This document shows positions 399 to 18,655 of a stretch of 18,657 nt of DNA, piece after piece (position 1 is the first letter of the stretch; each line of letters opens with the position of its first letter). The DNA is from a bacterium (GTDB lineage: Bacteria; Eisenbacteria; RBG-16-71-46). Location of the stretch: NCBI GenBank assembly GCA_043779265.1, contig JAYWEM010000134.1:1-18657 (forward strand). Reading direction: 5' to 3'. Under the pieces are notes generated by a model, which was not told the DNA's origin, did not search any database, and saw nothing but the letters and a program-made list of their open reading frames with translations. The position numbers and the translations under genes were made by a program.

Positions 399-1369
399 TC
401 GTCGTCACGGGTGCAGCGGGCTTCATCGGAAGCGCCCTCGTCTGGAGGCTGAACCAGCGAGGCGAGAACGATATCGTGTGCGTCGATACGCGGCCATCCG
501 ATGAGGGCGTCGAGAATCTTCGACCCCTGCACTATCGCGAGTACATCTCCCACGAGACATTCCTCCAGAGCATGGAGGCCGGACGGTGGTCCGACGGACT
601 CCGCGGCGTGTTCCATCTCGGGGCCTGCAGCAGCACCACGGAGATGGACTGGGATTACCTCACGCGCAACAACATCACTTACTCGCAGCGGCTGTGTCTC
701 GCGACGCTGCGCGATGGGGCCCGATTCATCCACGCGAGCAGCGCCGCCACGTACGGAGATGGTTCCCGCGGCTACTCGGATGACCATGCGGGGCTCGGTG
801 TACTCGAGCCTCTCAATCCGTACGGTCGCTCGAAGCAGGAGTTCGACCTGTGGGCGCTCGAGAACGGATTGTTGGAGCGCATCGTGGCGCTCAAGTACTT
901 CAATGTCTACGGACCGAATGAGTGGCACAAGGGCGAGATGCGCTCGATGGTGTGCAAGGGTTTCGAGCAGGTGCGCGATTCGGGTCGCGTGAGGCTGTTC
1001 AAGAGTGACCACCCCGACTACCCGGACGGCGGCCAGCGACGCGACTTCATCTACGTGAAGGACGCGGTGGACATGACGATGTGGTTCCTCGATCGTCCGG
1101 ACGTGAACGGCGTCTTCAACGTGGGCACCGGCGAGGCCGCCGACTGGAACAGGCTCATCCACGCGATCTTCAAGGCGATGGGCGTCGAACCACGCATCGA
1201 GTACATCGACATGCCCGCCGAGCTGGTCGGCCGCTACCAGTACTTCACACAAGCGGACATGCGGAAACTCCGAGCGGCAGGATATGCCGCTGCGGTGACG
1301 CCTCTGGAGTCGGCGGTCGAGGACTATGTCAGGCACCATCTTCTGACCGGCCGGGTGCTGGGCGCCTGA
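395..1369 (+). CDS. hldD: ADP-L-glycero-D-manno-heptose 6-epimerase
   Basis: MIVVTGAAGFIGSALV Rossmann motif, FHLGACSSTTE, ASSAATYG, PLNPYGRSK (YxxxK), LKYFNVYGPNEWHKGEMRS, RDFIYVKD, YQYFTQAD. All are typical of RfaD/HldD/GmhD. Confidence 0.96.
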   Translation: MIVVTGAAGFIGSALVWRLNQRGENDIVCVDTRPSDEGVENLRPLHYREYISHETFLQSMEAGRWSDGLRGVFHLGACSSTTEMDWDYLTRNNITYSQRLCLATLRDGARFIHASSAATYGDGSRGYSDDHAGLGVLEPLNPYGRSKQEFDLWALENGLLERIVALKYFNVYGPNEWHKGEMRSMVCKGFEQVRDSGRVRLFKSDHPDYPDGGQRRDFIYVKDAVDMTMWFLDRPDVNGVFNVGTGEAADWNRLIHAIFKAMGVEPRIEYIDMPAELVGRYQYFTQADMRKLRAAGYAAAVTPLESAVEDYVRHHLLTGRVLGA

Positions 1370-1402
1370 GGCATCCTCGCGACCGGTGCGGGGTGATGGG
1401 GC

Positions 1403-1408
1403 TATACT
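1403..1408 (+). promoter_or_regulatory. possible sigma-70 -10 element upstream of the first kinase gene
   Basis: TATACT in a GC-rich gap just after the hldD stop. No convincing -35 or extended -10. Confidence 0.3.
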
Positions 1409-1580
1409 CGCGCGACCTTCGGAATCGATCGACACCCGCGTGCCCCGCGTTGCTTCCCGCCCAAGCCCCGAAGTGAGTGTGAATGTGCCCTCCGAACACC
1501 CATCCGACTCTGATGCTCAGCCGAGTGGTGCGGTCGAATCGACTGGACCGCCCGTTCCGCGTGGGTCGGAGCAGGCGCCG

Positions 1581-3068
1581 ATGAACGGCGGACTCCCACT
1601 CTTCTTCGCGATCCTCTCCGCTCGTGGCGTTTGTCAGGAACTCGAGCCTCATTGGGCCGAGGCGTTGGGCGTGTCGAGTGATGAGGCGATGGCTCAAGCT
1701 CTTCCAACGCTGGCGTGCTGGTCTCGTGGGGAGGGCGGCGTGGACGCCCTGAGCGAGGCGATCGAGCACGTGAACGGGGGGCACGTCGCACACTGCCGAG
1801 TCAGCGTCGCGGGCCGCTCAATCGAATCGCTCGACCTCTCGTTGGTGCCCGTCACCTCAGCCACGGGCGTCCTCGAACGGATCATCGTCAGCGCCGCCGA
1901 TACCGGACGCGATGCGCGAGCCCACGCGAGCCTGCTCGCGGCCCAGCGTCAGCTGGCAGTCGGGAACCTCGCGGGCGGTATGGCGCACGGACTGAACAAC
2001 CTTCTCGCATCCACGCTCATGGCGGCCGGCATCCTGCACGACAAGATGACCGCACCGGACGATCGCCACCTCATCGAGACGATCGAAGGCAACACTCGGC
2101 GGGCTGCTGCGCTCACCCGCCAGGTGCTGGATCTCCGCAGTGCCTCCGAGACAGCGTGGACTCGCATTCAGCCGAGACAGCTCTTGCGGGAGATGATCAC
2201 GTTGCTGCGTGAATCATTCCCCCGCAGCCTCGGACTCGACTACCACGTCTCCGGAGAGTTGTGGTGCGTCCAAGGGAACGCCAATCAACTGCAGCAGGTG
2301 CTCCTCGCGCTGTGCCAGAATGCGAAAGAGGCCATGCCGCGAAGCGGCATTCTCGAACTGAGCGCACAGAACGTCGCACTCGAGGGCACGGCGCCGAAGG
2401 GGCAGGCCGAGTCTTCGACCCGGAAGGTCGTGCTCGTGAGAGTCCGGGACACTGGGTGCGGAATCGAGCCTGCCGATCTGGCGCAATTAGCCGAACCGTT
2501 CTTCACGACCAAGCCTGGTCACGTCGGGCTCGGGCTCACCAGCGTGGCGTCCATCGTGAATCGACATTGCGGTGTCCTGTCCATCGACAGCGAAGTGGGC
2601 AGGGGCAGTACCTTCCAGATCCAGCTGCCCGCGATGGTCGAGGTGGATGCCGCACCCGAATCGGATGATTCGAATGATCTCGCCGGCAGCGGCGAACTCG
2701 TATTGATCGTGGACGGGGATGAGTCCGTACGAGAGTCGACGCGCGCGTTGCTCGAGAGCCAGGGCTTCCAGACGACCATGGCCGCGAGTGCCGAGGAGGC
2801 GAATCGACGGTTCTTGCGGAGGCGTTCGGAGATCGCGCTCGTGGTGACGGATGCGAGCGATCTCCTCACGCGGCAGGGCGACATGATCCGGGCCATGCAT
2901 GCGCTGGAGCCGGACCTCCCGATTCTCGCCACCAGTCGTCTCGGCCAGACCACGAGGCGCGACGCGTTGCTCGCGCAGGGAGTGACGCAGGTCCTCCCGA
3001 GGCCCTGCGGTGAGGACATGCTCGTGCGATCGATCGTCCGGGCACTTCGTGTGGAGGACCTCGAGTGA
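1581..3068 (+). CDS. atypical hybrid sensor histidine kinase (degenerate PAS - HisKA - HATPase_c - pseudo-receiver)
   Basis: H-box AGGMAHGLNNLL, N-box QVLLALCQNAKEAM, G1 DTGCGI, F-box EPFFTTK, G2 GHVGLGL, receiver 'LVLIVDGD...LVVTD...ILATS...VLPRP'. Start is uncertain: the frame is open from 1386, there is a GTG at 1479, and the ATG at 1581 has GGAG at 1568-1571. Confidence 0.85.
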   Translation: MNGGLPLFFAILSARGVCQELEPHWAEALGVSSDEAMAQALPTLACWSRGEGGVDALSEAIEHVNGGHVAHCRVSVAGRSIESLDLSLVPVTSATGVLERIIVSAADTGRDARAHASLLAAQRQLAVGNLAGGMAHGLNNLLASTLMAAGILHDKMTAPDDRHLIETIEGNTRRAAALTRQVLDLRSASETAWTRIQPRQLLREMITLLRESFPRSLGLDYHVSGELWCVQGNANQLQQVLLALCQNAKEAMPRSGILELSAQNVALEGTAPKGQAESSTRKVVLVRVRDTGCGIEPADLAQLAEPFFTTKPGHVGLGLTSVASIVNRHCGVLSIDSEVGRGSTFQIQLPAMVEVDAAPESDDSNDLAGSGELVLIVDGDESVRESTRALLESQGFQTTMAASAEEANRRFLRRRSEIALVVTDASDLLTRQGDMIRAMHALEPDLPILATSRLGQTTRRDALLAQGVTQVLPRPCGEDMLVRSIVRALRVEDLE

Positions 3069-4417
3069 ACCTCGGGCGCGTGCTCATCGTCGAGGACGAA
3101 GCCTCATTCCGGAGCACGCTTCGTGCTTACCTGGAGTGGCGGGGACTTCATGTGATGGAAGCGCACAACTGCACGGAGGCTCTGCGTGTGTTCGCCGAGG
3201 CTCCGCCCGACGCGGTGGTGTGCGATTTCCAACTCCCCGATGGGGATGCGCTGACGTTGCTGCCGCGACTGCGCCGGCTCGGTGCGGACACTCCCGTGGT
3301 CGTCATCACCGGACACGGGACCATCGATCTCGCGGTCCAGCTCATGCAGCAGGGAGCGGAGCACTTCCTCACCAAGCCCGTCGAGCCCGAAGTGCTGTTC
3401 GGAGTCCTCGAGCGATTGATCGAGACCCGGCGCGCTCATCGGCACCAGCGCGCGAGCCAGGTCCGACAAGCGCGTGAGGCGCCCGATCCGTTCCTTGGCG
3501 CGAGCCAGGCCATCCAGCGACTCGAGACCGAGGCACGCCGCGCCCTCGAGACGGATAGCCAGGTTCTTCTGACGGGGGAGACCGGGTCAGGCAAGGGCGT
3601 TCTGGCCAGTTGGCTGCACGCCAACGGGCCTCGTGCCCGAGAGGCCTTCGTGGATCTGAACTGCGCCGGGATCTCGCGGGAACTGCTCGACTCCGAGCTG
3701 TTCGGCCACGAGAAGGGGGCGTTCACCGGCGCGGTGGCTTCTCGTCCCGGGCTGCTCGAGATCTCGGACCGCGGCACGCTGTTCCTGGATGAGATCGGTG
3801 ACATGGATCCGATCGTTCAGGGGAAGCTGTTGAAAGTGCTCGAGGAGAAGCGCTTCCGACGTGTCGGGGATACGCGTGACCGCGTGACGGACGTGCGACT
3901 GATCGCCGCGACACATCGGGACCTGCCGACCATGGTGCGTGAGAAGACGTTCCGCGAGGACTTCTACTACCGCGTCAGCGTGATTCCCTTGCACGTGCCC
4001 TCGCTCCGGGAGCGGTCGGAGGACATCACTCCGATTGCTCGCCGCCTGCTTGCGAGGATCGCGGGTGAACTCGGGCGGCCGGGAGCGACGCTCACGCACG
4101 AGGCGGAGCGGGCGCTCGCGACCCACCGTTGGCCGGGCAATGTGAGGGAGCTTCGGAATGCCCTGGAACGAGCGCTGCTCCGGAGCCGTGACGGGCGCAT
4201 CAGTGTCGCCGATACGCAATTGGGCAAAGCGCCTGCTCCCATGATGGCGGAGGAGAGTTCGCTCGACCTGACCCTCCACGAGCTCCAGCGGCGGCATGTC
4301 GAGCGGGTGTTGGCTGCCGAGGATGGTCACGTCGGTCGCGCCGCCGTGCGTCTGGGCATTCCACGGAGCACGCTCTATCAGAAGCTCCGCGCTTTGGGGA
4401 TCACCGTCGAGAGGTGA
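3065..4417 (+). CDS. NtrC/AtoC-family sigma-54-dependent response regulator (REC - AAA+ - Fis HTH)
   Basis: REC (VLIVEDE, VVCDFQLPD, ITGHG, TKP), Walker A GETGSGK, ELFGHEKGAFTGA, Walker B LFLDEIG, FREDFYYR, WPGNVRELRN, HTH 'AAVRLGIPRSTLYQKL'. GTGA overlap with the upstream kinase. Confidence 0.96.
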   Translation: MNLGRVLIVEDEASFRSTLRAYLEWRGLHVMEAHNCTEALRVFAEAPPDAVVCDFQLPDGDALTLLPRLRRLGADTPVVVITGHGTIDLAVQLMQQGAEHFLTKPVEPEVLFGVLERLIETRRAHRHQRASQVRQAREAPDPFLGASQAIQRLETEARRALETDSQVLLTGETGSGKGVLASWLHANGPRAREAFVDLNCAGISRELLDSELFGHEKGAFTGAVASRPGLLEISDRGTLFLDEIGDMDPIVQGKLLKVLEEKRFRRVGDTRDRVTDVRLIAATHRDLPTMVREKTFREDFYYRVSVIPLHVPSLRERSEDITPIARRLLARIAGELGRPGATLTHEAERALATHRWPGNVRELRNALERALLRSRDGRISVADTQLGKAPAPMMAEESSLDLTLHELQRRHVERVLAAEDGHVGRAAVRLGIPRSTLYQKLRALGITVER

Positions 4418-4550
4418 CTCAGGCGTCGTCGCGAATCTGGAATCAGGACCCGATCCCGGTTCGCCGACAGCTCTCCGGGAATCTGAAGTCAGTGCCCCAA
4501 CACTTGTCACAGACCGGACTTGTGATGGGTCTTCAGGACCCGGCACACGG

Positions 4551-4566
4551 TGGCCGGGCGCTTGCT
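4551..4566 (+). promoter_or_regulatory. sigma-54 (-24/-12) promoter
   Basis: TGGCCGGGCGCTTGCT = TGGC-N7-TTGC with exact GG-N10-GC spacing. Lies directly downstream of a sigma-54 activator gene and about 100 bp upstream of the likely kinase start. Confidence 0.7.
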
Positions 4567-4662
4567 CTTCTGAGCATGCATGCGCTCCAAGCCCCTCCAT
4601 TCCAGCTGGAACCATTCCGCTTCGGTCGAGCCTCTCGAGGCCCATGCCTCCCGGGTGACGCG

Positions 4663-6621
4663 GTGAATGTCCCACTGGACCCCGACGGCACACCGACGGC
4701 GCCGGATCATGAGTGGTTCGTTCGGTCGGCCTACTTCCAGGGGCTCGTCGAGAACGCCTCGGACCTGATCACGGTCCTCGATGGTCATGGTCGAATCCTC
4801 TATCAGAGCCCATCGGTCGAACGCGTACTCGGCTACACCATGGCCGAGCTCTCCACACACACCGTGATGGACTTCGTGCACCCGGACGACCTGGTCCGGG
4901 TTTTCGACGTTATGAGCATCGTGCTCCGAGTCAGCGGATCCTCGCAGAGTGTCGAGTGTCGGATGCGGCATCGTGATGGGGACTGGCGCGAGTTCGAGTG
5001 CGTCGGGAAGTCAGTCGAAACGCGAAGTGGCCGGAAGCACATCGTCGTCAACTCGCGCGACGCCACCGAGCGGCGCTCCATGGAGCGCGAACTGAACGCG
5101 AGCCATGAGCGTTACCGGCGATTCTTCGACGACGACATCGCGGCCAACCTCATCACGTCGGTCGAGGGTCGGATCCTCGCTTGCAACCCCTCGTTCGCCA
5201 CCATGTTCGGATTCGAGTCGGTCGAGGAGGCGCTCGGCACGCACGTGCAGAGGGTCTATGAGGACCCGGCACTGCGAGACGGGATCGTGCAGCGCCTGCT
5301 GGAACACGGACGCATCGACCGACTGGAGATCGAGTTGAAGCGGCTGGATGGCCAGCCGGTCCATGTCCTCGCGAACATGGTGGCCGACCGCGGACCCGAC
5401 GGGGAGATCAAGCAGATCCGCGGCTACTACTACGACGAGACGGTCGTGAAGCAACTCGAGAGTCAGCTGCAGGTCGCTCATCGACTCGAGTCGTTGGGGC
5501 TACTCGCCGGAGGTGTGGCGCACGACTTCAACAATCTGCTCACCGCCATCCTCGGCCACAGTCAGCTGGCGATGCGGATCCTCGAGGGGCACTCGCAAGC
5601 CATGGCGCACCTGCAGGAGATCTCTCGAGCAAGCGAGCGGGCGGCTTCCCTGACCCGGCAGCTTCTCGCTTTCAGCAGACGGGAGGTCGGCGCTCCGCGT
5701 GCTGTCATCCTCGAGCATGTCGTCTCGGATCTCACGGCGATGCTGCGTCGTCTGATCGGCGAGCACATCATGCTCACGACAGAGCTGTCCTGCTCCCCTC
5801 AGTCCGTCTGCGTGGACCCGGGCCAGTTGGAGCAGGTCGTGATGAACCTGGTGCTGAACGCGCGCGACGCGATGCCGGGGGGAGGGGAGGTCCGCATCGG
5901 TTCCTATCGCGAGGACGTCGACGAAGCGTTCGCCCGCGGCGCCGGTCTCACGCCCGGCCCTCATGCGGTCCTCGTCGTGTCCGACAACGGCATGGGCATG
6001 GACGCGGTGACACGCTCACGGATCTTCGAACCCTTCTTCACCACCCGCCCGGTCGGCAGCGGAACCGGCCTCGGACTCTCCATTGTCTACGGAGTGATCC
6101 GCCAGTGCGGCGGCCACATCAGCGTGGACAGTGCGATCGGTCATGGAACCCAGTTCCTCGTGCACCTGCCACTCCACGAGGGTTCACTCGAAGCTCCACG
6201 AATGGGCACGCCTGCGCCCGGGCAGGAGGGGGGGAACGAGACGATCCTCCTCGTCGAGGACGATGACGCGGTCCGCGCGCTCGCGACCGAAGTGCTCCGG
6301 GTCGGTGGCTATCGGGTCATCGAGGCGACCGACGGTCAGCATGGTCTTGAGATCGTCTCCGGCCTGGCGAGCGACGATCTCGCACTGATCGTCTCGGACA
6401 TCGTCATGCCGCGGCGCAGTGGTCATTCGTTCGCAGCACTCGCGCGGCAGTTGCGGCCGAACATCCGGATCCTGTTCATGTCCGGGTATCACGAGGAGTC
6501 CCCCAGCGAACTCGCCGGCTTCGCCGCCGGCGTGCCCCTCTTGGAGAAACCCTTCACGCCCGAAGAACTGCTGACTCGCGTCCGGCAGGCGATCGACGGG
6601 AACGATCCGAGCACGTCATGA
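4663..6621 (+). CDS. PAS-PAS hybrid sensor histidine kinase/receiver (CckA-like architecture, cytoplasmic)
   Basis: Two PAS/PAC domains (LVENASDLITVLD...YQSPSVERVLGY...VHPDD; NLITSVEGRILACNPSFATMFG), canonical H-box AGGVAHDFNNLL, NLVLNARDAM, DNGMGM, FEPFFTT, GTGLGL, receiver LLVEDD...SDIVMP...MSGY...EKPF. The frame is open from 4414, but the first 83 codons look non-coding and contain the sigma-54 promoter, so GTG 4663 was chosen. Confidence 0.9.
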   Translation: MNVPLDPDGTPTAPDHEWFVRSAYFQGLVENASDLITVLDGHGRILYQSPSVERVLGYTMAELSTHTVMDFVHPDDLVRVFDVMSIVLRVSGSSQSVECRMRHRDGDWREFECVGKSVETRSGRKHIVVNSRDATERRSMERELNASHERYRRFFDDDIAANLITSVEGRILACNPSFATMFGFESVEEALGTHVQRVYEDPALRDGIVQRLLEHGRIDRLEIELKRLDGQPVHVLANMVADRGPDGEIKQIRGYYYDETVVKQLESQLQVAHRLESLGLLAGGVAHDFNNLLTAILGHSQLAMRILEGHSQAMAHLQEISRASERAASLTRQLLAFSRREVGAPRAVILEHVVSDLTAMLRRLIGEHIMLTTELSCSPQSVCVDPGQLEQVVMNLVLNARDAMPGGGEVRIGSYREDVDEAFARGAGLTPGPHAVLVVSDNGMGMDAVTRSRIFEPFFTTRPVGSGTGLGLSIVYGVIRQCGGHISVDSAIGHGTQFLVHLPLHEGSLEAPRMGTPAPGQEGGNETILLVEDDDAVRALATEVLRVGGYRVIEATDGQHGLEIVSGLASDDLALIVSDIVMPRRSGHSFAALARQLRPNIRILFMSGYHEESPSELAGFAAGVPLLEKPFTPEELLTRVRQAIDGNDPSTS

Positions 6622-8913: not shown

Positions 8914-9486
8914 TCAGCGGCGCGTGAGCGTGACGATCGGCAGAGTCGGCAGCTCGATCCCATCGGGAGTCAGTGGCGTCACCGTGAGGGAAGCTGCCTG
9001 CTCGAGACCCGTTGAGTCCAGATGACTCGTCGTCTCGGCGACCACCCAAGTCCTGAGGCTCACGCCATGTGGGTCGGAAACCTCGACTCGGTAGTGCGAG
9101 GCGCCTTCGATCCGTGGCCACGTCACTCGGGAATCGCTTTGGATGACGAGCTTCGGTCCGCTCGAACCACTTCGCACCAGATCGTCCGCGGGAGTCGGTA
9201 GGCGATCCCGAACCCCGAGGAGTCCGAGGATGGCGATGATGGCGGCGGCGGCGACGATCGACCGGCGGTCCCAGCCGCGCCTCGTTCGCTCGCGGATGTC
9301 TCCTGCATCGGCAATCTTCGCGCGGACCGCATCCATCGACAGCTCCGAATAGAGCGCTTCGGCGAGCGAGTCACTTTGAAGGATCTCGGTCTCGAAGGCT
9401 TCGAGTTCCTCGCTGGCCATGAGGCCCGCTCGATAGCGAGCGAGTCGCTCCTCCTGCTCCGGCAGGAGTTCCCGTGGGGCGCTCAC
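8914..9486 (-). CDS. putative single-pass anti-sigma factor
   Basis: N-terminal anti-sigma-like helices (LARYRAGLMASEELEAFETEILQSDSLAEAL) without HxxxCxxC zinc ligands, one TM (SIVAAAAIIAILGLLGV) preceded by Arg residues, then a beta-rich Fn3-like tail (VTWPRIEGASHYRVEVSD). GTG start overlaps the sigma-factor stop. Confidence 0.7.
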   Translation of the reverse strand: MSAPRELLPEQEERLARYRAGLMASEELEAFETEILQSDSLAEALYSELSMDAVRAKIADAGDIRERTRRGWDRRSIVAAAAIIAILGLLGVRDRLPTPADDLVRSGSSGPKLVIQSDSRVTWPRIEGASHYRVEVSDPHGVSLRTWVVAETTSHLDSTGLEQAASLTVTPLTPDGIELPTLPIVTLTRR

Positions 9487-10055
9487 GCGATCACCCCCAG
9501 TCGGGCGAGTCTCGCCTTCAGCATCTGACGACAGCGATAGACCCTTCGATAGAGCACCGACTGCTCGAGTCCCTCTTCCCCGGCCAACTCGGCAGGGGAC
9601 CGGCCCTCGATGAGCGCGAGCAGATATCGGCTGCAGTTCTCGCTCTCGGGCGGGAGCTCCGCAATGGCTCGACGGATGCGTTCCACGGCGTCACTGGACT
9701 CCAGCGCCTCGAGCGGCGTGGGAAGATCATCCGCGGCACCGACCGCGGTATCGAGTGGGACATGCACGCGCTGACGGACCCGCGCGCGTTGGTAGTGATT
9801 GCCGATCGTGTTGCGCAGCACGGTGAAAGACCAGGCGATCGGTGGGGCTCCCTCGACAAGTCGGGAGCCGGGCCCTTGGATGTGCTTCTCGACAACGACT
9901 CGGAGCGCGTCCTGCACGATGTCCTCCACATCCGCTTCCGGCACCCGGCGCCGAGCGACCGAGACGAACCGTCTTCGCAGGTCGAGGAGCCAACTCACAT
10001 CGACCGGGCGCTGTGCGTCCGGTCTCTCTTCGGGAGTCTCGGATGGGCGGCTCAT
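9483..10055 (-). CDS. ECF-family RNA polymerase sigma factor
   Basis: Region 2 (VEDIVQDAL...WSFTVLRNTIGNHYQR) and region 4 (IRRAIAELP...EGRSPAELA...VLYRRVYRCRQML). Likely start is ATG 10055, with an ATGA overlap on the CHAT stop and an upstream GGGAGGG; 190 aa. The ORF-track extension to 10562 overlaps the CHAT gene and is rejected. Confidence 0.9.
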   Translation of the reverse strand: MSRPSETPEERPDAQRPVDVSWLLDLRRRFVSVARRRVPEADVEDIVQDALRVVVEKHIQGPGSRLVEGAPPIAWSFTVLRNTIGNHYQRARVRQRVHVPLDTAVGAADDLPTPLEALESSDAVERIRRAIAELPPESENCSRYLLALIEGRSPAELAGEEGLEQSVLYRRVYRCRQMLKARLARLGVIA

Positions 10056-11986
10056 CTCCCGCGCCCTCCCTGGATCAGTGCGGCGACGGGCGTTCCGGCG
10101 GCGCCATGCAGGACGAACGCGTGGATGTCCCGCAACGGCAGACCGGCCGCCGTCGCCGCGAGCCTCGCGCGGCGCAGGCTCTCGTCTCGTGCGAGCCCGG
10201 ATCGAAGGCCGGAATAGAACCAGTGCATCATCCGAGCGGCCGAGCGGTCCCCGACTTCCCAGCGTGTCGTGAGGACCGATCGCGCTCCCGCCTGCAGGAA
10301 TGCCCGAGCGAATCCGAGCTGACCCTCTCCGATGAAGGCAGGCCCCCGATCGCCATGACAGGCGGAGAGCGTGACGAGGTCGGCGCGGATCCGGAGCGCG
10401 CCGATCTCGGCTGGTGTGACGAGCCCGTTCGGCCCGCTCAGCGCCAGCCCCGATCGCGAGGCGTCCCCGGGGAGGATCACACCATGGGCCGCGACGTGGA
10501 TGACCGGCTCCCTCAGGATCTCCTGACGGAAGCGAGTACCGGTGGCAGCCGAGCCCAGCCACACGCGACCGGTCGGGCCCGCTGCATGCCTCGCCTCCTC
10601 CCGGGCATGGGGGAGGCGTCGCCGCGTCGCATCAGCCCCCGGCCCCGCGGCTCGATCGCCGACAGCAGCAGACGTCTGAACATCGGGATCCCCGAACGCG
10701 ACGACGATGCCCGGGACCACGGGCCGCTCGTGCAGCGCCATCCAAGCTGCTCCGGAGGGCGAGACGTGCGTCGCGAATCGAACGACGAGTCGCCGCGCGT
10801 GCGCTCCCGGAAGTGGAATCGCCTCCCACGGCAGATCCTCCGCGAGTGCGGGAGGGATCACGACGAACCGTTCGATGCCGGCGGGGAGTCGAGCCAGCGC
10901 CGCCGGCAGGAGGCCCGTCGCCAGTCGAGCACCGATCGCATCGATGGACTGTTGCGAGCCTCGTCCACTGATCGCCGTCCGGAACGCCCGGGCCTCGCGC
11001 ATCATGTCGGCGAGGACGAAGCGATGCACACTGAGCGAGTCGGGTGTCACCAGGAACGCCATCCCCGCACTTCCCTGGACGCCCCCGAGTGCCAGCATGA
11101 CCGCCTTCTGCTGGCGCAGCTTCGCCTGCAGCTCGACGAGCGATGGCTCGGTGGCGCCGATGCTCTCGTCGAACCAACGCGCGCGCGCACGTCCCTGCAG
11201 CTCGAAGGCGCGTGGAGTCCTGCCTCGGCGGATGTGGGACTCCATCCAGTGGGTCCAGGCGCGGGCGAGATTCGCACTCGCACCCACTCGGTTCTCCTCG
11301 TGGTCGTGCCCGACCTGGAGGGCCTCGAGGCGGGGCAGTTCACGGCTCAGCAGTGAGTCCAACTCCTCGTGGCGTTCGAGGTCACTGAGACAGTTCGCGC
11401 GACGAGCCAGCACGAGCTCCGGGTAGCCCGACATCCCGGCTGCTCCCACTCGCGCGTGAACGGAGTCCAGCTGGGCGAGCGCCTCGAGTGGCCGTGCGCT
11501 CTCCAGCAGTCGATTGACCAGCGTCAGTCGCGACGAGCGTTCATGGGATCGGTCACCTCGGCCGCGGTCGAGTGCGATCGCCTCGTGCAGGACGGCGAAG
11601 CTCTCATCCACTCGACCGAGCGCTCTCAGTGCCGAGGAGCGTGCGATCAGGGCACGGCTCCATTGGAGGCCAGCGTTCTCACTGCGAGCCACGCGAAGTG
11701 CGCTGTCCGCCAGAACCAGAGCCTCAGAGGATCGACGGGCGATGACCAGCATCTGGCTGTACTGCGTGAGGACGTGCGCGAGGCCGCGGCGGTGCTTCGT
11801 TCGAGCGTAGCTCTCGACGGCCAAGCGGGCGTAGGAAGTGGCCTTCGGCCAACGTTCGAGGAGCGCATGGCTCCGGGAGAGTGTCGAGTACGCGCCGCCG
11901 AGTACTCCTCGATCCGTGGAGCGTCTGAAACGAGGCAACTGTCGATGGAGGTATTGGATCCCCGCTTCCGGATCTCGATCACTCAC
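10052..11986 (-). CDS. TPR-CHAT domain protease (caspase-like clan CD), C-terminal 644-codon segment
   Basis: Helical TPR-like repeats, then CHAT motifs FVVIPPALAEDLPWEAI, VAFGDP, LPHAREEA, IHVAAHG (His codon 10484-10486), LVTLSACHG (Cys codon 10358-10360), GFARAFLQAGARSVLTTRWEVGD, FY. Confidence 0.9.
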   Translation of the reverse strand: MSDRDPEAGIQYLHRQLPRFRRSTDRGVLGGAYSTLSRSHALLERWPKATSYARLAVESYARTKHRRGLAHVLTQYSQMLVIARRSSEALVLADSALRVARSENAGLQWSRALIARSSALRALGRVDESFAVLHEAIALDRGRGDRSHERSSRLTLVNRLLESARPLEALAQLDSVHARVGAAGMSGYPELVLARRANCLSDLERHEELDSLLSRELPRLEALQVGHDHEENRVGASANLARAWTHWMESHIRRGRTPRAFELQGRARARWFDESIGATEPSLVELQAKLRQQKAVMLALGGVQGSAGMAFLVTPDSLSVHRFVLADMMREARAFRTAISGRGSQQSIDAIGARLATGLLPAALARLPAGIERFVVIPPALAEDLPWEAIPLPGAHARRLVVRFATHVSPSGAAWMALHERPVVPGIVVAFGDPDVQTSAAVGDRAAGPGADATRRRLPHAREEARHAAGPTGRVWLGSAATGTRFRQEILREPVIHVAAHGVILPGDASRSGLALSGPNGLVTPAEIGALRIRADLVTLSACHGDRGPAFIGEGQLGFARAFLQAGARSVLTTRWEVGDRSAARMMHWFYSGLRSGLARDESLRRARLAATAAGLPLRDIHAFVLHGAAGTPVAALIQGGRGR

Positions 11987-12010
11987 GATCTCGGCGAGAT
12001 AGGAGACTGA

Positions 12011-12421
12011 TTACAACTCGTCCACGGGCGACCGCGCTCGGATCGCCAGGCGGATCGATCGCTCCAGATCGGCTTCGATCGCCGGCCGAGGGAACATGCG
12101 TGACCCGACCCCAGCGGCCTTGTAGAGCGCTTGGGCCGCAAGTGTGTCCAGCCTTGCCACCTCGAGCGAGTCGGCTACCGCCAACAACTCCGAACGGATC
12201 GTGACCGGTGCGATCTCCGAGCTGTTGCGCGCGGCCTCCCGTCTCGCGAAGACCATGGCCGCGCTCACTCGAAGCGCCTGACGGGCATGCACCGAGGTCG
12301 AAGCCTCGGCCGCGGTCCGTAGCAGGGGCACGGCAGCCGCCCCCAGAATGGCGATCATGAGGGCGGTGAGAAGGCGGGTGATGGGGGCCCGCAGCATCGG
12401 ATGAAGGGAGTCCGCTTGCAT
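12011..12421 (-). pseudogene. N-terminal segment of the TPR-CHAT gene (signal peptide/TM plus helical region), cut off by an in-frame TAA
   Basis: Same frame as 10052..11986. The junction reads GAC GAG TTG TAA TCA GTC TCC TAT CTC GCC GAG ATC GTG AGT with only one stop. Hydrophobic stretch LLTALMIAILGAAAVPLL. Start ATG 12421 or 12397. Confidence 0.7.
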
Positions 12422-12429
12422 GGTCTCGC

Positions 12430-12438
12430 AGGATAGCA
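12430..12438 (-). promoter_or_regulatory. possible extended -10 promoter for the CHAT-sigma operon
   Basis: Minus strand reads TGCTATCCT (TGn-TAnnnT), 8 nt before ATG 12421. Confidence 0.35.
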
Positions 12439-12483
12439 GCGAGGCGGCCGTTGGGGATGGAGTCACCCTGGCTCACAGATCAC

Positions 12484-12512
12484 TTGACTACTCAACTGTA
12501 TGAGCATACAGT
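12484..12512 (+). promoter_or_regulatory. sigma-70 promoter of the sulfur operon
   Basis: TTGACT (12484-12489) - 17 nt - TACAGT (12507-12512) in the divergent intergenic region. Confidence 0.8.
12495..12512. promoter_or_regulatory. perfect 8-2-8 palindromic operator overlapping the -10 (probable ArsR site)
   Basis: ACTGTATG-AG-CATACAGT. Its position over the -10 fits a repressor site, and an ArsR gene lies in the downstream operon. Confidence 0.8.
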
Positions 12513-12559
12513 CTCGCAGTTCATCGAAGTCATGGAACCCTGGGTGTCGAGGAGGACCC

Positions 12560-13348
12560 TTGTCGATCGAAGCGTGGGCTGTTCCCGTCGTGGGTCTGCT
12601 GTTGGCGGGCCTGGTCGGACTCTCGCTCGGGATGCTCGGTGCGGGCGGCTCGATCCTCACGGCGCCGATCTTCATCTACGTCCTCGGGCACTCACCGCGT
12701 GAGGCCATCGCCATGAGTCTGCCGGTCGTCGGCGTGGTCAGTCTCGTCGGCGCGCTCCGGCATCGACATGCCGGGAACGTGGCGCTCCGTACGGCGATCC
12801 AGTTCGGGGCAGTGGCCATGATCGGAGCATTCCTGGGTGCCCGACTTGCAGGCGCCCTGAGTGGCGCCCAGCAGCTCGGCATCCTCGCTTTCGTGATGTT
12901 GGTGGCGGGAGCGGCGATGTTGCGGCCGACGCCGATTCAGGAGCGTGAGGGGAGCGCCCACGCGACGCCCTCCGCGTCCTGGAAGCTGGCCGCGATCGGC
13001 CTTGGTGTCGGGATCCTCACTGGCATCGTCGGTATCGGCGGCGGGTTCCTGATCGTGCCCGCGCTCGTGAACCTCGCCGGCGTCCCCATCCGGCATGCCG
13101 TCGGGACCTCGCTCGTCGTGATCGTCATGAACGCCGCCGGCGGTTCGATCGGCTACTTGGGGCAGGTGAGCATCGGAGGGACCTATCTCGTCGCGTTCAT
13201 CGCAGTGGCCAGCCTCGCGGCGGTTGCGGGGATCCAACTCTCGCACCGCGTCCGCGCCGCCTCACTGAAGCTCGCCTTCGCCGTCTTCATCCTCGTGGTG
13301 GGGGCATGGATGCTCTATTCGAACCGCTCTGCTTTCGGACTCTCATGA
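12560..13348 (+). CDS. TauE/SafE-family sulfite exporter
   Basis: Multi-TM protein with two homologous halves (GLSLGMLGAGGSILTAP; GILTGIVGIGGGFLIVPAL; AVGTSL). TTG 12560 follows GAGGAGG. The ATG at 12500 lies inside the promoter, so it is rejected as the start. Confidence 0.92.
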   Translation: MSIEAWAVPVVGLLLAGLVGLSLGMLGAGGSILTAPIFIYVLGHSPREAIAMSLPVVGVVSLVGALRHRHAGNVALRTAIQFGAVAMIGAFLGARLAGALSGAQQLGILAFVMLVAGAAMLRPTPIQEREGSAHATPSASWKLAAIGLGVGILTGIVGIGGGFLIVPALVNLAGVPIRHAVGTSLVVIVMNAAGGSIGYLGQVSIGGTYLVAFIAVASLAAVAGIQLSHRVRAASLKLAFAVFILVVGAWMLYSNRSAFGLS

Positions 13349-13391
13349 CCCCGTTCCCGGGTGCCTGCTGCATCCCGAAGAGGAGACTCCC

Positions 13392-14843
13392 ATGATCGTC
13401 AGACGATTCTTCGATCCGAAACTCGCCCAGACGAGTTACCTGCTCGGTTGCGGCCGCAAGGGCGTCGCTGTGGTGATCGATCCCAATCGCGATGTCGAGC
13501 AGTACATCCGGGCGGCGGAGCTCGATGGTCTGGCCATCACGCACGTGACCGAAACCCACATCCACGCCGACTTCGTCTCCGGCTCGCGGGCGCTCGCGAA
13601 GCGGACCGGAGCGCAGTTGCATCTCTCGGATGAGGGTGGCCCAGACTGGAGCTATGCGTTCGCCAAGCAGGACGGAGCCTCGCTCGTGCGAGACGGCGAT
13701 CGCATCACCGTCGGGAACATCATCCTCCAGGTGGTCCATACGCCCGGGCACACACCCGAGCACATCAGCTTCCTCGTCACCGACTCGGCAGCCGCTGATG
13801 AACCCATCGCGATGGCCACGGGTGACTTCGTCTTCGTCGGAGATGTCGGCCGCCCGGACCTGCTCGAGAAGGCCGCCGGTGGGAAGGGGACGATGGAACC
13901 CGCCGCGCGCACGCTGAGTCAGTCGCTCGATCGCTTTCGCACGCTTCCCGACTGGCTCCAGATCTGGCCCGGACACGGCGCCGGTTCCGCGTGCGGCAAG
14001 GGGCTCAGTTCGGTGCCGCACAGCACGGTCGGATATGAACGGCGCTTCAATTGGGCGCTGAGTGTCACGGATGAGGCGGAATTCGTCCGCATGGTGCTCG
14101 CCGGTCAGCCGGAACCGCCTCGCTACTTCGCCGAGATGAAGCGCATCAATCGAGAGGGGCCTCCGCTCACGCTCGCGCCGCCGCCTCGGCATCTCGAGGC
14201 GAAAGAGCTGGCCGGGCTGCTCCAGCGAGGTGAAATCGTCATCGACACGCGACCTGCCGCCGTCTTCGCGACGAGGCATGTTCCGGGAACGCTCAACATC
14301 CCGCTCAACAAGTCGTTCTCCACCTGGGTCGGCTCGTTGGTTCCCTACGATCGCGATCTGCATCTGATCGTGGATGAGACCGCCGGCGCGAGCGCCGCAT
14401 CCGCCTCTCTCGACCTGGCCATGATCGGACTCGATCGAGTCGCCGGGTGGTTCGGCGTCGATGCGCTCGCGGTCGCCTCCGAGTCGGCGGGCCAATCGAC
14501 CATTCCCCAGATGGCGTGCTCCGCGCTCGTCGGCAGCCTGGGTCGTCGCGAGGTCACTTTGCTTGATGTGCGCGGTGCAGCCGAGTGGGAGGCAGGTCAC
14601 ATCGAAGGCTCGATGAACATCGCGCTTGGCGATCTTCCGCGCCGGATCGCCGAGGTGCCGCGTGATCGACCACTCATCGTGCAGTGCCAGAGCGGCGGAC
14701 GCTCGTCGATCGCAGCCAGCGTCCTCAGGCAACTCGGCATCGAGGATGTGACGAATCTGGTGGGCGGCATCGTCGCGTGGCATGAGGAGAAGCGAGAGGT
14801 CATCGTCCAGGCCGGGCAGGAGAGCGCCGCATGGGGAAGCTGA
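13392..14843 (+). CDS. CstB-like persulfide dioxygenase (MBL fold) fused to pseudo-rhodanese and rhodanese domains
   Basis: ETHIHADF, HTPGHTPEH, GDFVFVGDVGRPD, PGHGAGSACGK; middle rhodanese fold (IDTR...HVPGTLNIP) lacks a loop Cys; C-terminal rhodanese has CQSGGRS. RBS GAGGAG. Confidence 0.92.
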   Translation: MIVRRFFDPKLAQTSYLLGCGRKGVAVVIDPNRDVEQYIRAAELDGLAITHVTETHIHADFVSGSRALAKRTGAQLHLSDEGGPDWSYAFAKQDGASLVRDGDRITVGNIILQVVHTPGHTPEHISFLVTDSAAADEPIAMATGDFVFVGDVGRPDLLEKAAGGKGTMEPAARTLSQSLDRFRTLPDWLQIWPGHGAGSACGKGLSSVPHSTVGYERRFNWALSVTDEAEFVRMVLAGQPEPPRYFAEMKRINREGPPLTLAPPPRHLEAKELAGLLQRGEIVIDTRPAAVFATRHVPGTLNIPLNKSFSTWVGSLVPYDRDLHLIVDETAGASAASASLDLAMIGLDRVAGWFGVDALAVASESAGQSTIPQMACSALVGSLGRREVTLLDVRGAAEWEAGHIEGSMNIALGDLPRRIAEVPRDRPLIVQCQSGGRSSIAASVLRQLGIEDVTNLVGGIVAWHEEKREVIVQAGQESAAWGS

Positions 14844-15160
14844 CGCTCACGCCCGAGGTACTCGATCTCATCGCGGAGCGGTTCCAGGCACTCGCCGAAC
14901 CGGCACGCCTCCAGATCCTCGACTCGCTTCGTTCGGGTGAGAAGACGGTCGGCGAGTTGGTCGTCGCGACCGGCCTGACCCAGGCCAACGCCTCCAAGCA
15001 TCTGCAAGTGCTCCACGCCCGCGCATTCGTGAAGCGCCGCAAGGTGGGGCTGCACGTGTACTACTCACTCGCCGACCGGCAGGTGTTCCGTCTCTGCGAC
15101 CTCATGTGCGGCCGACTGGAAGCGGAGCTCAAGTCGCGCGACCGTCTGCTCTCTGTCTGA
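14831..15160 (+). CDS. ArsR/SmtB-family transcriptional repressor
   Basis: FQALAEPARLQILDSL..GEKTVGELV..TGLTQANASKHLQVL...VKRRKVGLHVYYSL winged HTH, with C-terminal CDLMC. Overlaps the upstream gene by 13 nt. Confidence 0.93.
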   Translation: MGKLTLTPEVLDLIAERFQALAEPARLQILDSLRSGEKTVGELVVATGLTQANASKHLQVLHARAFVKRRKVGLHVYYSLADRQVFRLCDLMCGRLEAELKSRDRLLSV

Positions 15161-15208
15161 GCCGCAACGGCGTCATCACCCCCATCCGAGTCCCGAAATG
15201 GAGTCCCC

Positions 15209-15781
15209 ATGTGGAATGAGTTCATTCGAACCGTGTCGCAACCGTGGCCCTGGTACGTCTCCGGGCCCCTCATCGGTCTGACCGTCCCGATTCTGCTCCT
15301 CATCGGCAATCGGATGTTCGGCGTCTCCAGCAACCTGAGGCACCTGTGCGCTGCCACGATACCGGCGCGTGTCTCGCTCTTCGACTATGACTGGAAACGA
15401 GCGGGCGGCTGGAACCTCGTGTTCGCTGCCGGCATCATGATCGGCGGTCTCGTCGCTGGGGCATTCCTCGGCGCACACCAGATGGCGCCGCTCAGTGCCA
15501 GCGCCACGGCGATGTTCGAGGGGATGGGCTTGGTCGCGCCTCAGGGCCTGCTCCCGCCGGAACTGTTCGCTTGGAGCGCGCTCGCGGACCCTCGCATGCT
15601 GGCGATCCTCGTCGTCGGGGGGTTCCTCGTCGGTTTCGGCGCCTCGTACGCGGGAGGGTGCACGTCCGGCCATGCGATCACCGGGCTCTCGGACTTCCAA
15701 CTCCCGTCGCTCGTGGCTGTGCTCGGTTTCTTCGTGGGCGGCCTGATCAGCGCCTGGCTCATCCTGCCGCGCATCCTGTGA
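15209..15781 (+). CDS. YeeE/YedE-family sulfur transporter subunit
   Basis: PWPWYVSGPLIG, GGFLVGFGASYAGGCTSGHAITGLS signature, multi-TM. Confidence 0.92.
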   Translation: MWNEFIRTVSQPWPWYVSGPLIGLTVPILLLIGNRMFGVSSNLRHLCAATIPARVSLFDYDWKRAGGWNLVFAAGIMIGGLVAGAFLGAHQMAPLSASATAMFEGMGLVAPQGLLPPELFAWSALADPRMLAILVVGGFLVGFGASYAGGCTSGHAITGLSDFQLPSLVAVLGFFVGGLISAWLILPRIL

Positions 15782-15803
15782 CCTGCAACCGAATGGAGTC
15801 CCG

Positions 15804-16268
15804 ATGAGCCTTCCCGATATTGCTTCGCCTCGCTCCGCTTCGCCGCGACTGGCGGCGCTCGCCGGCTACCTGCTGGCGGGGATCCTCTTCGGCATCATCC
15901 TCACCAAGTCCGAAGCGGTGTCATGGTTCCGGATCCAGGAGATGTTCCGGTTCCAGTCGTTCCACATGTACGGGATCATCGGGAGCGCGATCGCCGTGGC
16001 CGCCGTGGCGCTTCAGATCATCAAGCGCAATCGGATTCGGTCGCTCGATGGCGAACTCATCCATGTGCCCGCGAAGTCGATGGGCACGGGCCGGCACTAT
16101 GCGATCGGCGGCACCTTGTTCGGCATTGGCTGGGGACTCGCCGGCGCCTGTCCCGGCCCGATCTTCGCTCTGATGGGGACAGGAGCATGGGTGATGGCGA
16201 TCGTGCTGCTCAGTGCGACGCTGGGAACATGGGCGTACGGCTGGATGAAGCCGCACCTGCCGCACTGA
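15804..16268 (+). CDS. YeeE/YedE-family sulfur transporter subunit (partner half)
   Basis: GILFGIILTKSEAVSWFRIQEMFRFQSFHMYG and GGTLFGIGWGLAGACPGP signature. Confidence 0.92.
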   Translation: MSLPDIASPRSASPRLAALAGYLLAGILFGIILTKSEAVSWFRIQEMFRFQSFHMYGIIGSAIAVAAVALQIIKRNRIRSLDGELIHVPAKSMGTGRHYAIGGTLFGIGWGLAGACPGPIFALMGTGAWVMAIVLLSATLGTWAYGWMKPHLPH

Positions 16269-16290: not shown

Positions 16291-18002
16291 TCAGGTGTTC
16301 CGAATGCGGAAGGCCCCAGGCTCGCCCCGCGGCCCCTTCGGCTCGGCCGGCAGGACCATGGCATTCGCATCGCGAAGAGCATGGTAGGCGGGCGGCAGGA
16401 TCTCGACACCGGCGCGATCGAACTCATCCTGGATCGCGGCGTGCAGGTCCGAATGGAGCCGCAGCTGCGGGTGCGACAGCCGTGTCACACAGGTGAGTTC
16501 ATAGGCGACGTAGTAGTCGTCGAGTGAGCGCTGGAACACTTTCGGCTCGGGAGTCGTCTCGACCCCATCGACCAACTTGGCGGCGGCGATCAGCAGCGCG
16601 TGCACCTGACGCCATTCCACGTCATAGCCGATCGTGATCTGAGTATGGAGGACGAGCCCCTGCTCCTCGGCGAGGCGCGTGTAGTTGATGATCGCGGACG
16701 AGGCCACCTGACCGCCGGTCTGCTCGCCGATCTTGACGCGATCGCCCACCGCGAACGAGCGTGAATAGGTGAGCACGAGCCCCGCGATGATGTTCCCGAC
16801 GATGCCGGTCGATCCGAGCGAAACGAGCACGCCGAGGAACAGCGAGACGCCTTGGAACGCCTTGGACTGGGCACCCGGGAAGAAGGGGAAGGCGATGATG
16901 ACGGCGGCCAGCCAGAACAGGATCCGCAGCAGGCGCTTGCTGGGACGCGCCAGTTCGGGGTGGAAACCCGGCATCTGATGCGTGCCATCCTCGATCGCGT
17001 CGAAGAAGCGATCGACCAGCTGGGTCAGCCAGTTCGTGATCACGATGATGATCGCGACCATGAACAGCCCCGGGAGTGCCGAGCCGATTGACCGCGCCGC
17101 ATCTCCAAGCTGCGTGCCGGCGAAGTTCAGGAGCTGCCAGCTCCAACTCTGAGTCCACGGGAACAGCGAGAGCACGAGGGTCAGGTAGATGTACAGCAGA
17201 ACCAGGCCGATCAGCAGGTCGATTCGCGACAGGATGCCGCTGACGACGGCGATGACCTGCCCCTGCGAGAGGATCTCGAAGTCGCGAAGCCGGAGCCCCT
17301 TCACATACTTGGGCAGCATGTCCTTGAGCCAAGCCCGCCAGCGCAGGTCCCCGGCGGAGAGCAGGCGCATCGCCACGATCGCCGCGGTCGTGATACCGAT
17401 GGCGAAGAGGATGGAGAAGAGGATGCCGAGCGGTCGCCTGCCCGCGCGCTCCTTCTCGATGCCGGTCCGGATCCGCATGGGGAGCTCTGCGATCTGAGCA
17501 GCCAACTCGGTCGGCGACTGCCCTTCGACATCGCCGGATGTGATGACCCAGAGGAAGGACGACCCAGACGGACCTCGATGCCATCGGGCGTGGTCACCAG
17601 CGCGACCGAGTCGGCCGGCACACGGGAGTCGGCTACGGCTGAACCGAGCCTCGACCGGATAGCGCTGGCCCGCTGGGCAGGGGAGAGCCCGTCTCGACTC
17701 GAGCGGATACGGAAGATCTCCTTGCCGCCCACGAAGACCGGTGCACTCGGGATCGGTGCCGTCGACAGGGTCTCGGGTGTCGCGCTCTCCGCCTGGTTGG
17801 TGAGCGTCTCCGAGGCCCGGTGCAGCGCGGTCGAGTCGACGAGCACGGTGTCGGGCTGCGCCGCGATCGCCGAGGAATCGATGGCGACCCCCGCGACCGA
17901 GTCGTGAGCAGCCAGTGACTGAGCCGAGGTCGAAGCCGGGAAGAGGAGACTTGCGAACAGGAGCAGGCGAGCGAACGTCCCGCATCGACTCGTTGACCGC
18001 AT
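16291..18002 (-). pseudogene. MscS-family mechanosensitive channel, frameshifted at about 17563-17565 and with an apparent internal deletion
   Basis: The N-terminus (ATG 18002, signal peptide, APVFVGGKEIFRI...SPAQRA...GIEVRLG) is in one frame and the TM plus MscS domain (FQGVSLFLGVLVSLGS...NIIAG...FAVGDRVKIG...ITIGYDV...LDDYYVAYEL...IQDEF) is in another. One added G in a GGG run joins them. Confidence 0.85.
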
Positions 18003-18097
18003 GGGAGAACCCTCTGGTCGGCGACGGCTGGGCTCAGCGAAGTGGGATGGTAGTGATGTGGGGCGTCGAATCGACCGCATGACACGACCGCGGTCCG

Positions 18098-18655
18098 TCA
18101 CTCCCGGAACGCGATCTGGAACTTGAGGAGCAGCTGATGATGCTCGGGGCCCGTCTCCGTCGGGATCACATAGTCGGCCTGCATGCGCACCGAGGGCGAG
18201 GGGGCGAGATCGAAACCGAGCAGGATGAGGTCGCGATCGGGGCCGCCACCGTCTCGACTGAATCGATCCAGCCGGACTCGTGTCTGAAGCGTCGGACTCA
18301 GACGACAGCCGAGCGTCACGTGCCCGCCGAACGGGTCGTAGACCTCGGGGAAGAATCGGGACTCGTAGTCGAACCGTGCGGCGATCCACTCGCCCCCGAT
18401 CATCCAGGCGGCTCGTTCCCACCGAAGATCGGCGCCAACGATCCGGCGTTTTCCCCGGAATGACGGGAAGTAGGGAGGAGAACCCCCGGGTCCGATGAAG
18501 TCGTGTGAGTGCAGGAAGCTGGCGCCCAGCGAGAGCACGCCCACACCCCTCGAATCGGCGAACGGCATCCCCTCGGCACGAGCGGCGAACAGGAAGTCCT
18601 CGTTGTCGTTCGAATTGGCTTCGTTCCCATTGAACAGGCCAGCGGCGAGGTCGAC
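18098..18655 (-). CDS. outer-membrane porin, OprO/OprP phosphate-selective porin-like (5' truncated by window edge)
   Basis: Frame is open to the window edge: VDLAAGLFNGNEANSNDNEDFLFAARAEGMPF..., amphipathic beta strands (IVGADLRW, IGGEWI, VRMQADYV) and a terminal strand LLLKFQIAF. Confidence 0.75.
   Translation of the reverse strand, partial: VDLAAGLFNGNEANSNDNEDFLFAARAEGMPFADSRGVGVLSLGASFLHSHDFIGPGGSPPYFPSFRGKRRIVGADLRWERAAWMIGGEWIAARFDYESRFFPEVYDPFGGHVTLGCRLSPTLQTRVRLDRFSRDGGGPDRDLILLGFDLAPSPSVRMQADYVIPTETGPEHHQLLLKFQIAFRE

Follow-up and report, generated by a model that had tools for sequence, protein, structure and literature searches.

Can a caspase-like protease that works outside the cytoplasm serve as the dedicated switch of one sigma factor? 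The question is raised by a three-gene locus on an 18,657-nucleotide stretch of DNA (hereafter the window; contig JAYWEM010000134.1 of GenBank assembly GCA_043779265.1, lineage Eisenbacteria, RBG-16-71-46), which is contig C134 of a 3.43-Mb genome that is 92% complete (G000). All three genes lie on the minus strand and encode, in order, a TPR-CHAT protease, an extracytoplasmic function (ECF)-type sigma factor, and a single-pass membrane protein predicted to be an anti-sigma factor. As a preliminary description of the locus had reported, they are joined by 4-nt overlaps (ATGA at 10052-10055 and GTGA at 9483-9486). We find that the three genes form a conserved, co-inherited module. The account that we favor, with confidence only slightly better than even, is that the exported TPR-CHAT protease cuts the linker of the anti-sigma and thereby releases the sigma factor, which would then transcribe its own gene and genes for secreted surface proteins.

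Loci of the sigma family were taken from genomes and metagenomes, giving 82 loci that represent 72 groups at 95% identity, with 9 duplicate loci dropped. The sigma factor of the window has a close homolog labelled Candidatus Eisenbacteria and more distant ones in Krumholzibacteriia genomes. The loci hold two clades of the module: clade A, to which the window belongs, has proteases of ~800 aa and zinc-less, Fn3-tailed anti-sigmas, whereas in clade B the proteases are ~1000 aa long and the anti-sigmas have a TPR tail and are often of the zinc-binding type. A single-pass gene directly follows the sigma gene in 56 of the 56 groups with enough sequence (55 by script and one via an alternative start), and protease and anti-sigma are separate genes in all loci. 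Synteny in homologs had been named beforehand as a point on which the idea of a dedicated protease could fail, and the three genes do stay together: a CHAT gene adjoins the sigma gene in 19 of the 21 groups with at least 3.4 kb on both sides, and in 24 of the 29 with 3.4 kb upstream. This linkage is far above chance, the expectation for a CHAT gene within +/-4 kb being ~2.6% (11 CHAT matches in 3.43 Mb). Three of the five misses are cut short downstream, another comes from a genome (G060) that has an ortholog elsewhere (E = 7e-149), and the fifth is locus L134. The CHAT gene can be co-oriented upstream, divergent, downstream, or convergent relative to the sigma gene, and the link between them therefore survives rearrangement. 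Seven new loci found via the anti-sigma all carry the full trio (7/7); three weaker, partial anti-sigma matches, one of them at a contig end, have neither sigma nor CHAT beside them.

The same association holds at the level of genomes. In a sample of 201 genomes of the class, the clade-A sigma occurs in 15 and the clade-A protease in 14, all among those 15, with none in the other 186; five of the 14 protease-bearing genomes contributed rows to the protease profile and nine contributed none. CHAT domains as such are common in these genomes (5 to 16 matches each). Because the module is patchy in its distribution (4/15 genomes in one genus), it appears to be gained or lost as a unit.

The middle gene (9483..10055, minus strand; 190 aa) is an ECF-type sigma factor, as first described, and belongs to a distinct family. 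It scores 52.6 bits with TIGR02937 (cut-off 42.9), consists of sigma2 and sigma4 only, and reaches no NCBIfam sigma subfamily cut-off. Its best solved relative is SigL (E = 3e-7), and the matches to SigL, SigH, and CnrH span its whole length. The family is tight, with 42 of 43 matches at E <= 1e-27, followed by a gap to 5e-4.

The third gene (8914..9486, minus strand; 190 aa) gave no match in a Pfam scan. Its structure model agrees with the earlier description of a single-pass protein with an anti-sigma-like N-terminus, giving a zinc-less three-helix domain (9462-9280), one transmembrane helix (9264-9211), a linker predicted to be disordered (pLDDT <50 at residues 93-108), and an Fn3-like outer domain (9156-8917) with structural matches to Fn3 at Z ~9 and rmsd ~2 over 77 aligned residues. 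The zinc motif HxxxCxxC is absent from the window anti-sigma and from all 71 further clade-A homologs (76 short matches minus 5 already aligned), and it occurs in many clade-B anti-sigmas; this sister clade matches the zinc anti-sigma 3hug_B (E = 3.5e-6), and zf-HC2 is matched by 6 of 26 anti-sigma members. Anti-sigma domains (ASDs) without zinc exist, and the third gene product is likely a Class I-type (ASD) anti-sigma that, by analogy with known systems, would bind the sigma factor. In clade B, the anti-sigma gene is often followed by a fourth one, for a secreted protein of 220-280 aa that ends in a TWGxIKSLYR-like tail; among 12 such genes (L040:9576-10277, L124:9421-10122, and ten more), 10 are of one family and two show a weak DUF7451 match.

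The protease gene had been described as a frame that begins with a signal or transmembrane segment. The hydrophobic N-terminal segment is there, but the frame is not one open reading frame (ORF). An N-terminal piece of 136 codons (12014..12421, minus strand) carries the first TPR-like helices and, at about residues 9-40, a predicted signal peptide whose last residues are A-E-A; codon 137 is an in-frame TAA (12011..12013), a nonsense change inside a TPR helix; and the C-terminal piece (10052..12010) holds the TPR repeats and the CHAT domain (Pfam match 10933-10154). The catalytic pair is intact, as had been noted, with His646 (10484..10486; numbered in the read-through frame and aligning to His585 of the Craspase TPR-CHAT) and Cys688 (10358..10360), and this dyad is invariant in 31 of 31 aligned family members. 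The domain matches PF12770 at 145.5 bits (E = 3e-42; cut-off 24), and a structure model covering the CHAT domain only (pLDDT 87) matches separase (Z 20.5, rmsd 2.8, 238 aligned residues), Csx29 (Z 20.4), and DdvA (Z 20.1), which are tied. By profile, caspase-like fold, and dyad, it is a putative clan CD protease domain.

Topology was read by eye from hydropathy and charge, and the placements that follow are predictions of that kind. A hydrophobic, signal-peptide-type segment begins 24 of 26 full-length proteases, and 9 of the 16 clade-A proteases whose C-terminus is complete finish with a transmembrane helix and a basic tail (none of 14 do so in clade B, and the C-terminal piece in the window is likewise without such an anchor). 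These two features place the CHAT domain outside the cytoplasm. Basic residues precede the transmembrane helix of the anti-sigma, for which an N-in/C-out orientation is thus predicted, so that intact proteases and the anti-sigma tail would lie on the same outer side, as the preliminary description had supposed.

A candidate for the site at which the two proteins meet lies in the outer linker of the anti-sigma. Arg105 (9172..9174, minus strand; V-R-S here and hydrophobic-R-G/A/S in the family) is a candidate cut or docking site. It is invariant in all 46 aligned anti-sigmas (19/19 in clade A and 27/27 in clade B), although the outer domains of the two clades are unrelated (Fn3-like vs TPR-like), and it lies ~10-17 residues past the transmembrane helix in clade A and mostly 23-28 past it in clade B, with a hydrophobic residue before it and Gly, Ala, or Ser after. 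The motif occurs in 68 of the 71 further homologs, against 15.1 expected by shuffling, and the remaining 3 keep the Arg; it also fits 6 of 21 unrelated ECF-adjacent single-pass membrane proteins. On the side of the protease, Asp578 (30/31) and Glu608 (31/31) fall in the stretch of the CHAT domain that links its first strand to its first helix. This is the region in which gingipain-R and MALT1 hold their Arg-binding acid (PMC4626109), and such a role for the two acids is a candidate only. Elsewhere in this genome (contig C58), an LRG linker motif is present in one more single-pass protein that is ECF-adjacent, with no CHAT gene within 5 kb.

The sigma factor's regulon had been called unknown at the outset; a candidate promoter now points to secreted surface proteins as the predicted targets. 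In clade A, 19 non-redundant loci have the motif G[GA]GAGAT-N12/13-[CG]AAA[CT] immediately before the sigma gene. An unbiased gapped-dimer scan was marginal (11-12 of 27 vs 9-10 when shuffled), and the motif was put together by visual inspection of dimers that overlap. In a subsequent test, its matrix finds the same place in 8 of 10 left-out loci (scores 11-25) and in 7 of 7 new loci (24-30). Clade-B upstream regions mostly score below 0 with this matrix (30/40; best 13.7), and no sigma-type motif was found in that clade. The site in the window (10034..10062, minus strand) has an intact -35-like element, GCGGGAGAT, and a degenerate -10-like element (GAGAC for SAAAY), and it overlaps the protease stop and the sigma start. 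It scores 11.2 at the conserved position, and because 146 sites in the genome score at least 11, it is supported by position and not by score. The sigma-gene site of a same-genus genome likewise has an intact -35 and a degenerate -10.

The geometry of the motif differs among loci. In several divergent loci, 7-8 nt separate the -10-like element from the start codon, a spacing that would suit a leaderless, autoregulated transcript. Among loci of the operon type, the sigma start codon and the -10-like element share letters (CAAATGA) in L085, L086, L089, L093, L109, L161, L234, L235, L237, L238, L241, and L242; the transcript predicted there starts shortly past the beginning of the sigma ORF, and the anti-sigma might be the only gene that it carries in full. 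At six loci, additional copies of the motif come after the gene of the anti-sigma or of the protease; five precede ORFs with signal-peptide-like starts. Genome G023 has five further sites, of which four are followed at 60-95 nt by ORFs with signal-peptide-like starts; one of these ORFs encodes a beta-propeller protein, and another weakly matches Por_Secre_tail. A near-perfect copy (C87:2979, L198; score 29.2) occupies the divergent gap between a different ECF gene and what we take, from its sequence, to be an acpS-like gene. Pfam was run on 87 of the 257 flanking ORFs; 14 of the 87, at 12 loci, have an FlgD-Ig tail, and two of these are C25 peptidases. One clade-B module (L153) is flanked by two large C25 (gingipain-type) peptidases with FlgD-Ig tails (732-4769 and 10207-14886).

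Joined together, these features suggest the following sequence of events. A cue outside the cell, for which the preliminary description had proposed a ligand of the TPRs, would activate the exported TPR-CHAT protease, which would act as the dedicated site-1 protease of the co-encoded membrane anti-sigma and cut it, likely at or near the invariant linker Arg. RseP and cytoplasmic proteases would complete the removal of the anti-sigma (RseP-like M50 proteases were found in 4 of 4 relatives tested), and the freed ECF sigma would transcribe its own gene and the genes of secreted surface proteins. We hold more tentatively, at somewhat less than an even chance, the fuller claim that the module represents a class of separately encoded, exported caspase-fold site-1 proteases, one per sigma, which cut after a linker Arg with a pocket unlike that of separase and turn on secreted surface proteins from a GGGAGAT-N12/13-SAAAY promoter.

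Several points weigh against this proposal, in which sigma binding, cleavage, and a second cut by RseP are drawn from known systems. The genomes behind the locus and co-occurrence counts are kin, and these counts are not independent. Two fully flanked loci (L162 and L134) have no adjacent CHAT gene, and a small sub-branch (L147, L150/L151) is without the Arg motif, with no CHAT seen. The Arg motif was defined on the alignments on which it was first tested, and the 71 further homologs were found by a profile that contains it. In four genomes (G054, G052, G001, and G006), the strict promoter pattern gives mostly genic or repeat matches. As to specificity, the known bacterial TPR-CHATs described in PMC11506125 cut after Met or Leu, and autoproteolysis of DdvA was not observed in the available part of that report, its dyad mutants being the same as wild type in unstimulated cells. 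Separase binds the P1 Arg through Asp2151 (human D2070) (PMC10317155, PMC9729208), which is residue W+8 of a W-x-V-x-D segment shared with the TPR-CHAT family. Mapped onto the 31 family members by sequence alignment and residue offsets, this position is never Asp (Ala 16, Arg 9, Glu 3, Ser 2, Thr 1), and Arg specificity is thus without structural support from separase. The Asp of the W-x-V-x-D segment itself was considered as the S1 Asp and rejected, since alignment and published numbering put the S1 Asp four residues further on, where the family has none.

Some of these points fit an account that we consider unlikely but worth weighing, namely that the TPR-CHAT protein works in the manner of RseB, as a guard or co-sensor: it would grip the linker Arg and shield the anti-sigma until a signal displaces it and another protease makes the first cut, and its own activity would be directed against itself or an invader. 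Docking would explain the invariance of the Arg no less well than cutting, the family has no counterpart of the separase S1 Asp, and the TPR-CHAT of DdvA is a steric block to RseP, with no cleavage by it seen in the part of the study available (PMC11506125). Retention of the dyad in every aligned member speaks against such a role, however, as does the position of the Arg in a predicted disordered linker and before a small residue, which is common for scissile bonds. Still another account, which we regard as improbable, makes the protease an output: the sigma factor would turn on an exported protease that processes secreted surface proteins, and general envelope proteases would cut the anti-sigma. 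The frequency of secreted, FlgD-Ig-tailed neighbors agrees with it, and so do the ECF54 sigmas that adjoin CHAT genes in the absence of an anti-sigma (PMC7826278). However, the candidate sigma promoter in most loci is found past the protease gene, where it is placed at the 3' end of that gene or directed away from it, so that the protease is mostly outside the predicted regulon, and the invariant linker Arg is left unexplained. Cleavage of the anti-sigma by the exported protease remains the account that we prefer for the family.

The copy in the window raises a separate question. Its TAA leaves the export signal on a piece of 136 aa and the TPR-CHAT part on another of 644-652 aa that has no such signal. 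The stop has identical letters, with no alternatives, in Logan contigs of two runs (X1 and X2) at ~10x; these runs may be the source DNA and so are not independent. Both pieces align gap-free across the stop to 12 intact orthologs and are conserved to an equal degree (the N-terminal piece at 19-39% identity, like the rest of the TPR region), and the stop therefore looks recent. This copy is probably a recent pseudogene, and with its catalytic domain no longer joined to the export signal, it is very probably non-functional; the stop also makes it a poor test object. That it still works, whether because the TAA is read through or recoded or because the 644-aa piece is translated on its own and has a cytoplasmic role like that of Csx29, is very unlikely: both pieces have coding-like GC3 (0.76-0.80) and ortholog-level identity, and an in-frame GTG stands at 11986, but the orthologous column at the stop is variable (E, S, G, R, A), the internal TAA occurs in only this one of the 14 genomes with a clade-A protease, the genome's second clade-A protease is itself frameshifted, and a cytoplasmic piece would be unable to reach the outer linker. 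Recoding was rejected, because genes for ribosomal proteins and other ordinary genes here terminate with TAA, no tRNA with a UUA anticodon is listed, and other genes have internal TAA stops.

The rest of the genome gives some context for this decay. Internal TAA stops occur in a histidine kinase gene (C39 near 13240, minus strand) and in two other otherwise intact-looking genes (C59:22914 and C136:8299), a modest load of nonsense changes. In a small sample, 6 of 44 genes were flagged as broken, one of which was real on inspection. Its only other clade-A protease (C147:5360-7779, L001) has a signal peptide, is frameshifted near 6540, and stands without a neighboring cognate sigma pair; a second clade-A protease also occurs in the same-genus genome G001, there as a single open frame of 851 aa on contig C21. 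RseP gave no match in this genome. We rejected this as a sign of decay, since the neighbors of rseP from the same-genus genome are also unmatched, and it is probably an assembly gap. Decay or assembly error is seen in other loci as well, with protease and anti-sigma genes frameshifted in L238 (G201:C1) and the protease frameshifted in L122.

Other CHAT genes of this genome stand beside ECF-like sigmas, with a zinc anti-sigma-like gene on C10, C12, and C16 and a membrane kinase-like gene on C96 and C113; going by these labels, which were read from sequence, the genome appears to hold several parallel CHAT-ECF modules. Beside the module in the window, positions 12500-16268 carry a sulfur-handling cluster (TauE, an MBL-rhodanese fusion, an ArsR regulator, and two sulfur-transporter-type genes), which is not kept beside orthologous modules. 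Farther along, an MscS gene (16291-18422, minus strand) is frameshifted near 17560, with its signal-peptide and channel pieces in different frames and a beta domain that appears shortened.

How, then, does the module compare with known systems? In the DegS-RseA-RseP and PrsW-RsiW cascades, a single-pass anti-sigma is cut outside the membrane and then within it. The module has such an anti-sigma, whereas the site-1 proteases of these cascades have other folds and no one dedicated partner per sigma. The DegS/RseA cascade is also treated in PMC10028731. ECF54 sigmas of Actinobacteria likewise lie near TPR-CHAT genes; the module always has an anti-sigma, in contrast to ECF54 loci as described in the part of PMC7826278 available, and its motif is GGGAGAT / SAAAY, compared with GTATCAG / CTCC for ECF54. 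Separase shares the TPR-plus-caspase fold (Z 20.5; PDB 5fc2) and the W-x-V-x-D segment, and it cuts after Arg in unstructured linkers (PMC10317155, PMC4626109). Unlike separase, the module does not conserve an Asp for binding of the P1 Arg, and the P4 Glu of ExxR is not part of its motif.

The preliminary description had cited the CRISPR-associated pair Csx29 and Csx30 among its precedents. It was right that Csx29 cuts an anti-sigma: cleavage of Csx30 relieves inhibition of an ECF sigma, CASP-sigma (PMC10028731, PMC9729208). Type III-E Craspase is thus like the module in its TPR-CHAT fold (Csx29, Z 20.4) and in having an anti-sigma as substrate, which is shown for Csx29. It differs in being cytoplasmic, in being triggered by Cas7-11 and target RNA, and in having a soluble anti-sigma. 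Craspase models score far below their cut-offs in the window (NF041237, 14.7 vs 300; NF041236, 24.2 vs 100), so that the Csx29 model cut-off is not reached. In line with the earlier view of the system as CRISPR-independent, no cas gene is present in the window and no Cas or CBASS family was matched among the 87 neighbors scanned, with distant targets partly scanned.

The closest studied system is instead DdvA/DdvS of Myxococcus xanthus, of which the module is best read, by analogy, as a split form. DdvA is the best solved match of the module's CHAT-domain profile (E = 4e-13), and the two systems share an ECF sigma, a three-helix anti-sigma domain, one transmembrane helix, a flexible outer linker, and an extracytoplasmic TPR-CHAT with a His-Cys dyad (PMC11506125, PMC6061681; PDB 8rot, 8rw5, 8rlz). 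In DdvA/DdvS, the transmembrane anti-sigma carries a periplasmic TPR-CHAT, RseP degrades DdvA once the outer domain is removed, and a site-1 role for CHAT was proposed and not shown in the part of the report available; the locus also encodes a C25 peptidase (PMC11506125). The module likely works as DdvA does but is not a member of that group. DdvA has its TPR-CHAT fused to the anti-sigma, whereas the module's protease is separate and predicted to be exported; the module's anti-sigma, unlike DdvA, carries a small outer domain of its own (Fn3-like or TPR-like) and lacks zinc ligands in clade A; and the module's sigma profile does not retrieve DdvS. The neighbors and predicted targets of the module are secreted surface proteins, in contrast to CBASS and CRISPR for DdvA/DdvS, and no defence island was seen among the flanking ORFs scanned. 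In a literature for which coverage of subscription papers was poor, we found only DdvA/DdvS and CRISPR-linked systems and no account of a split, exported form. New here are the lineage, the genome-level co-occurrence, a candidate promoter with secreted targets, and the finding that the separase Arg pocket is not conserved. If our reading is correct, exported bacterial caspase-like proteases gain a job outside immunity, and the module is a split, testable form of the mechanism proposed for DdvA, with a cut site and a reporter promoter predicted from sequence. The DdvA structure left open the site-1 role of a periplasmic CHAT protease, and there protease and substrate are one chain; in the module they are separate, with a predicted cut residue and promoter, so that cleavage, specificity, and output become separable.

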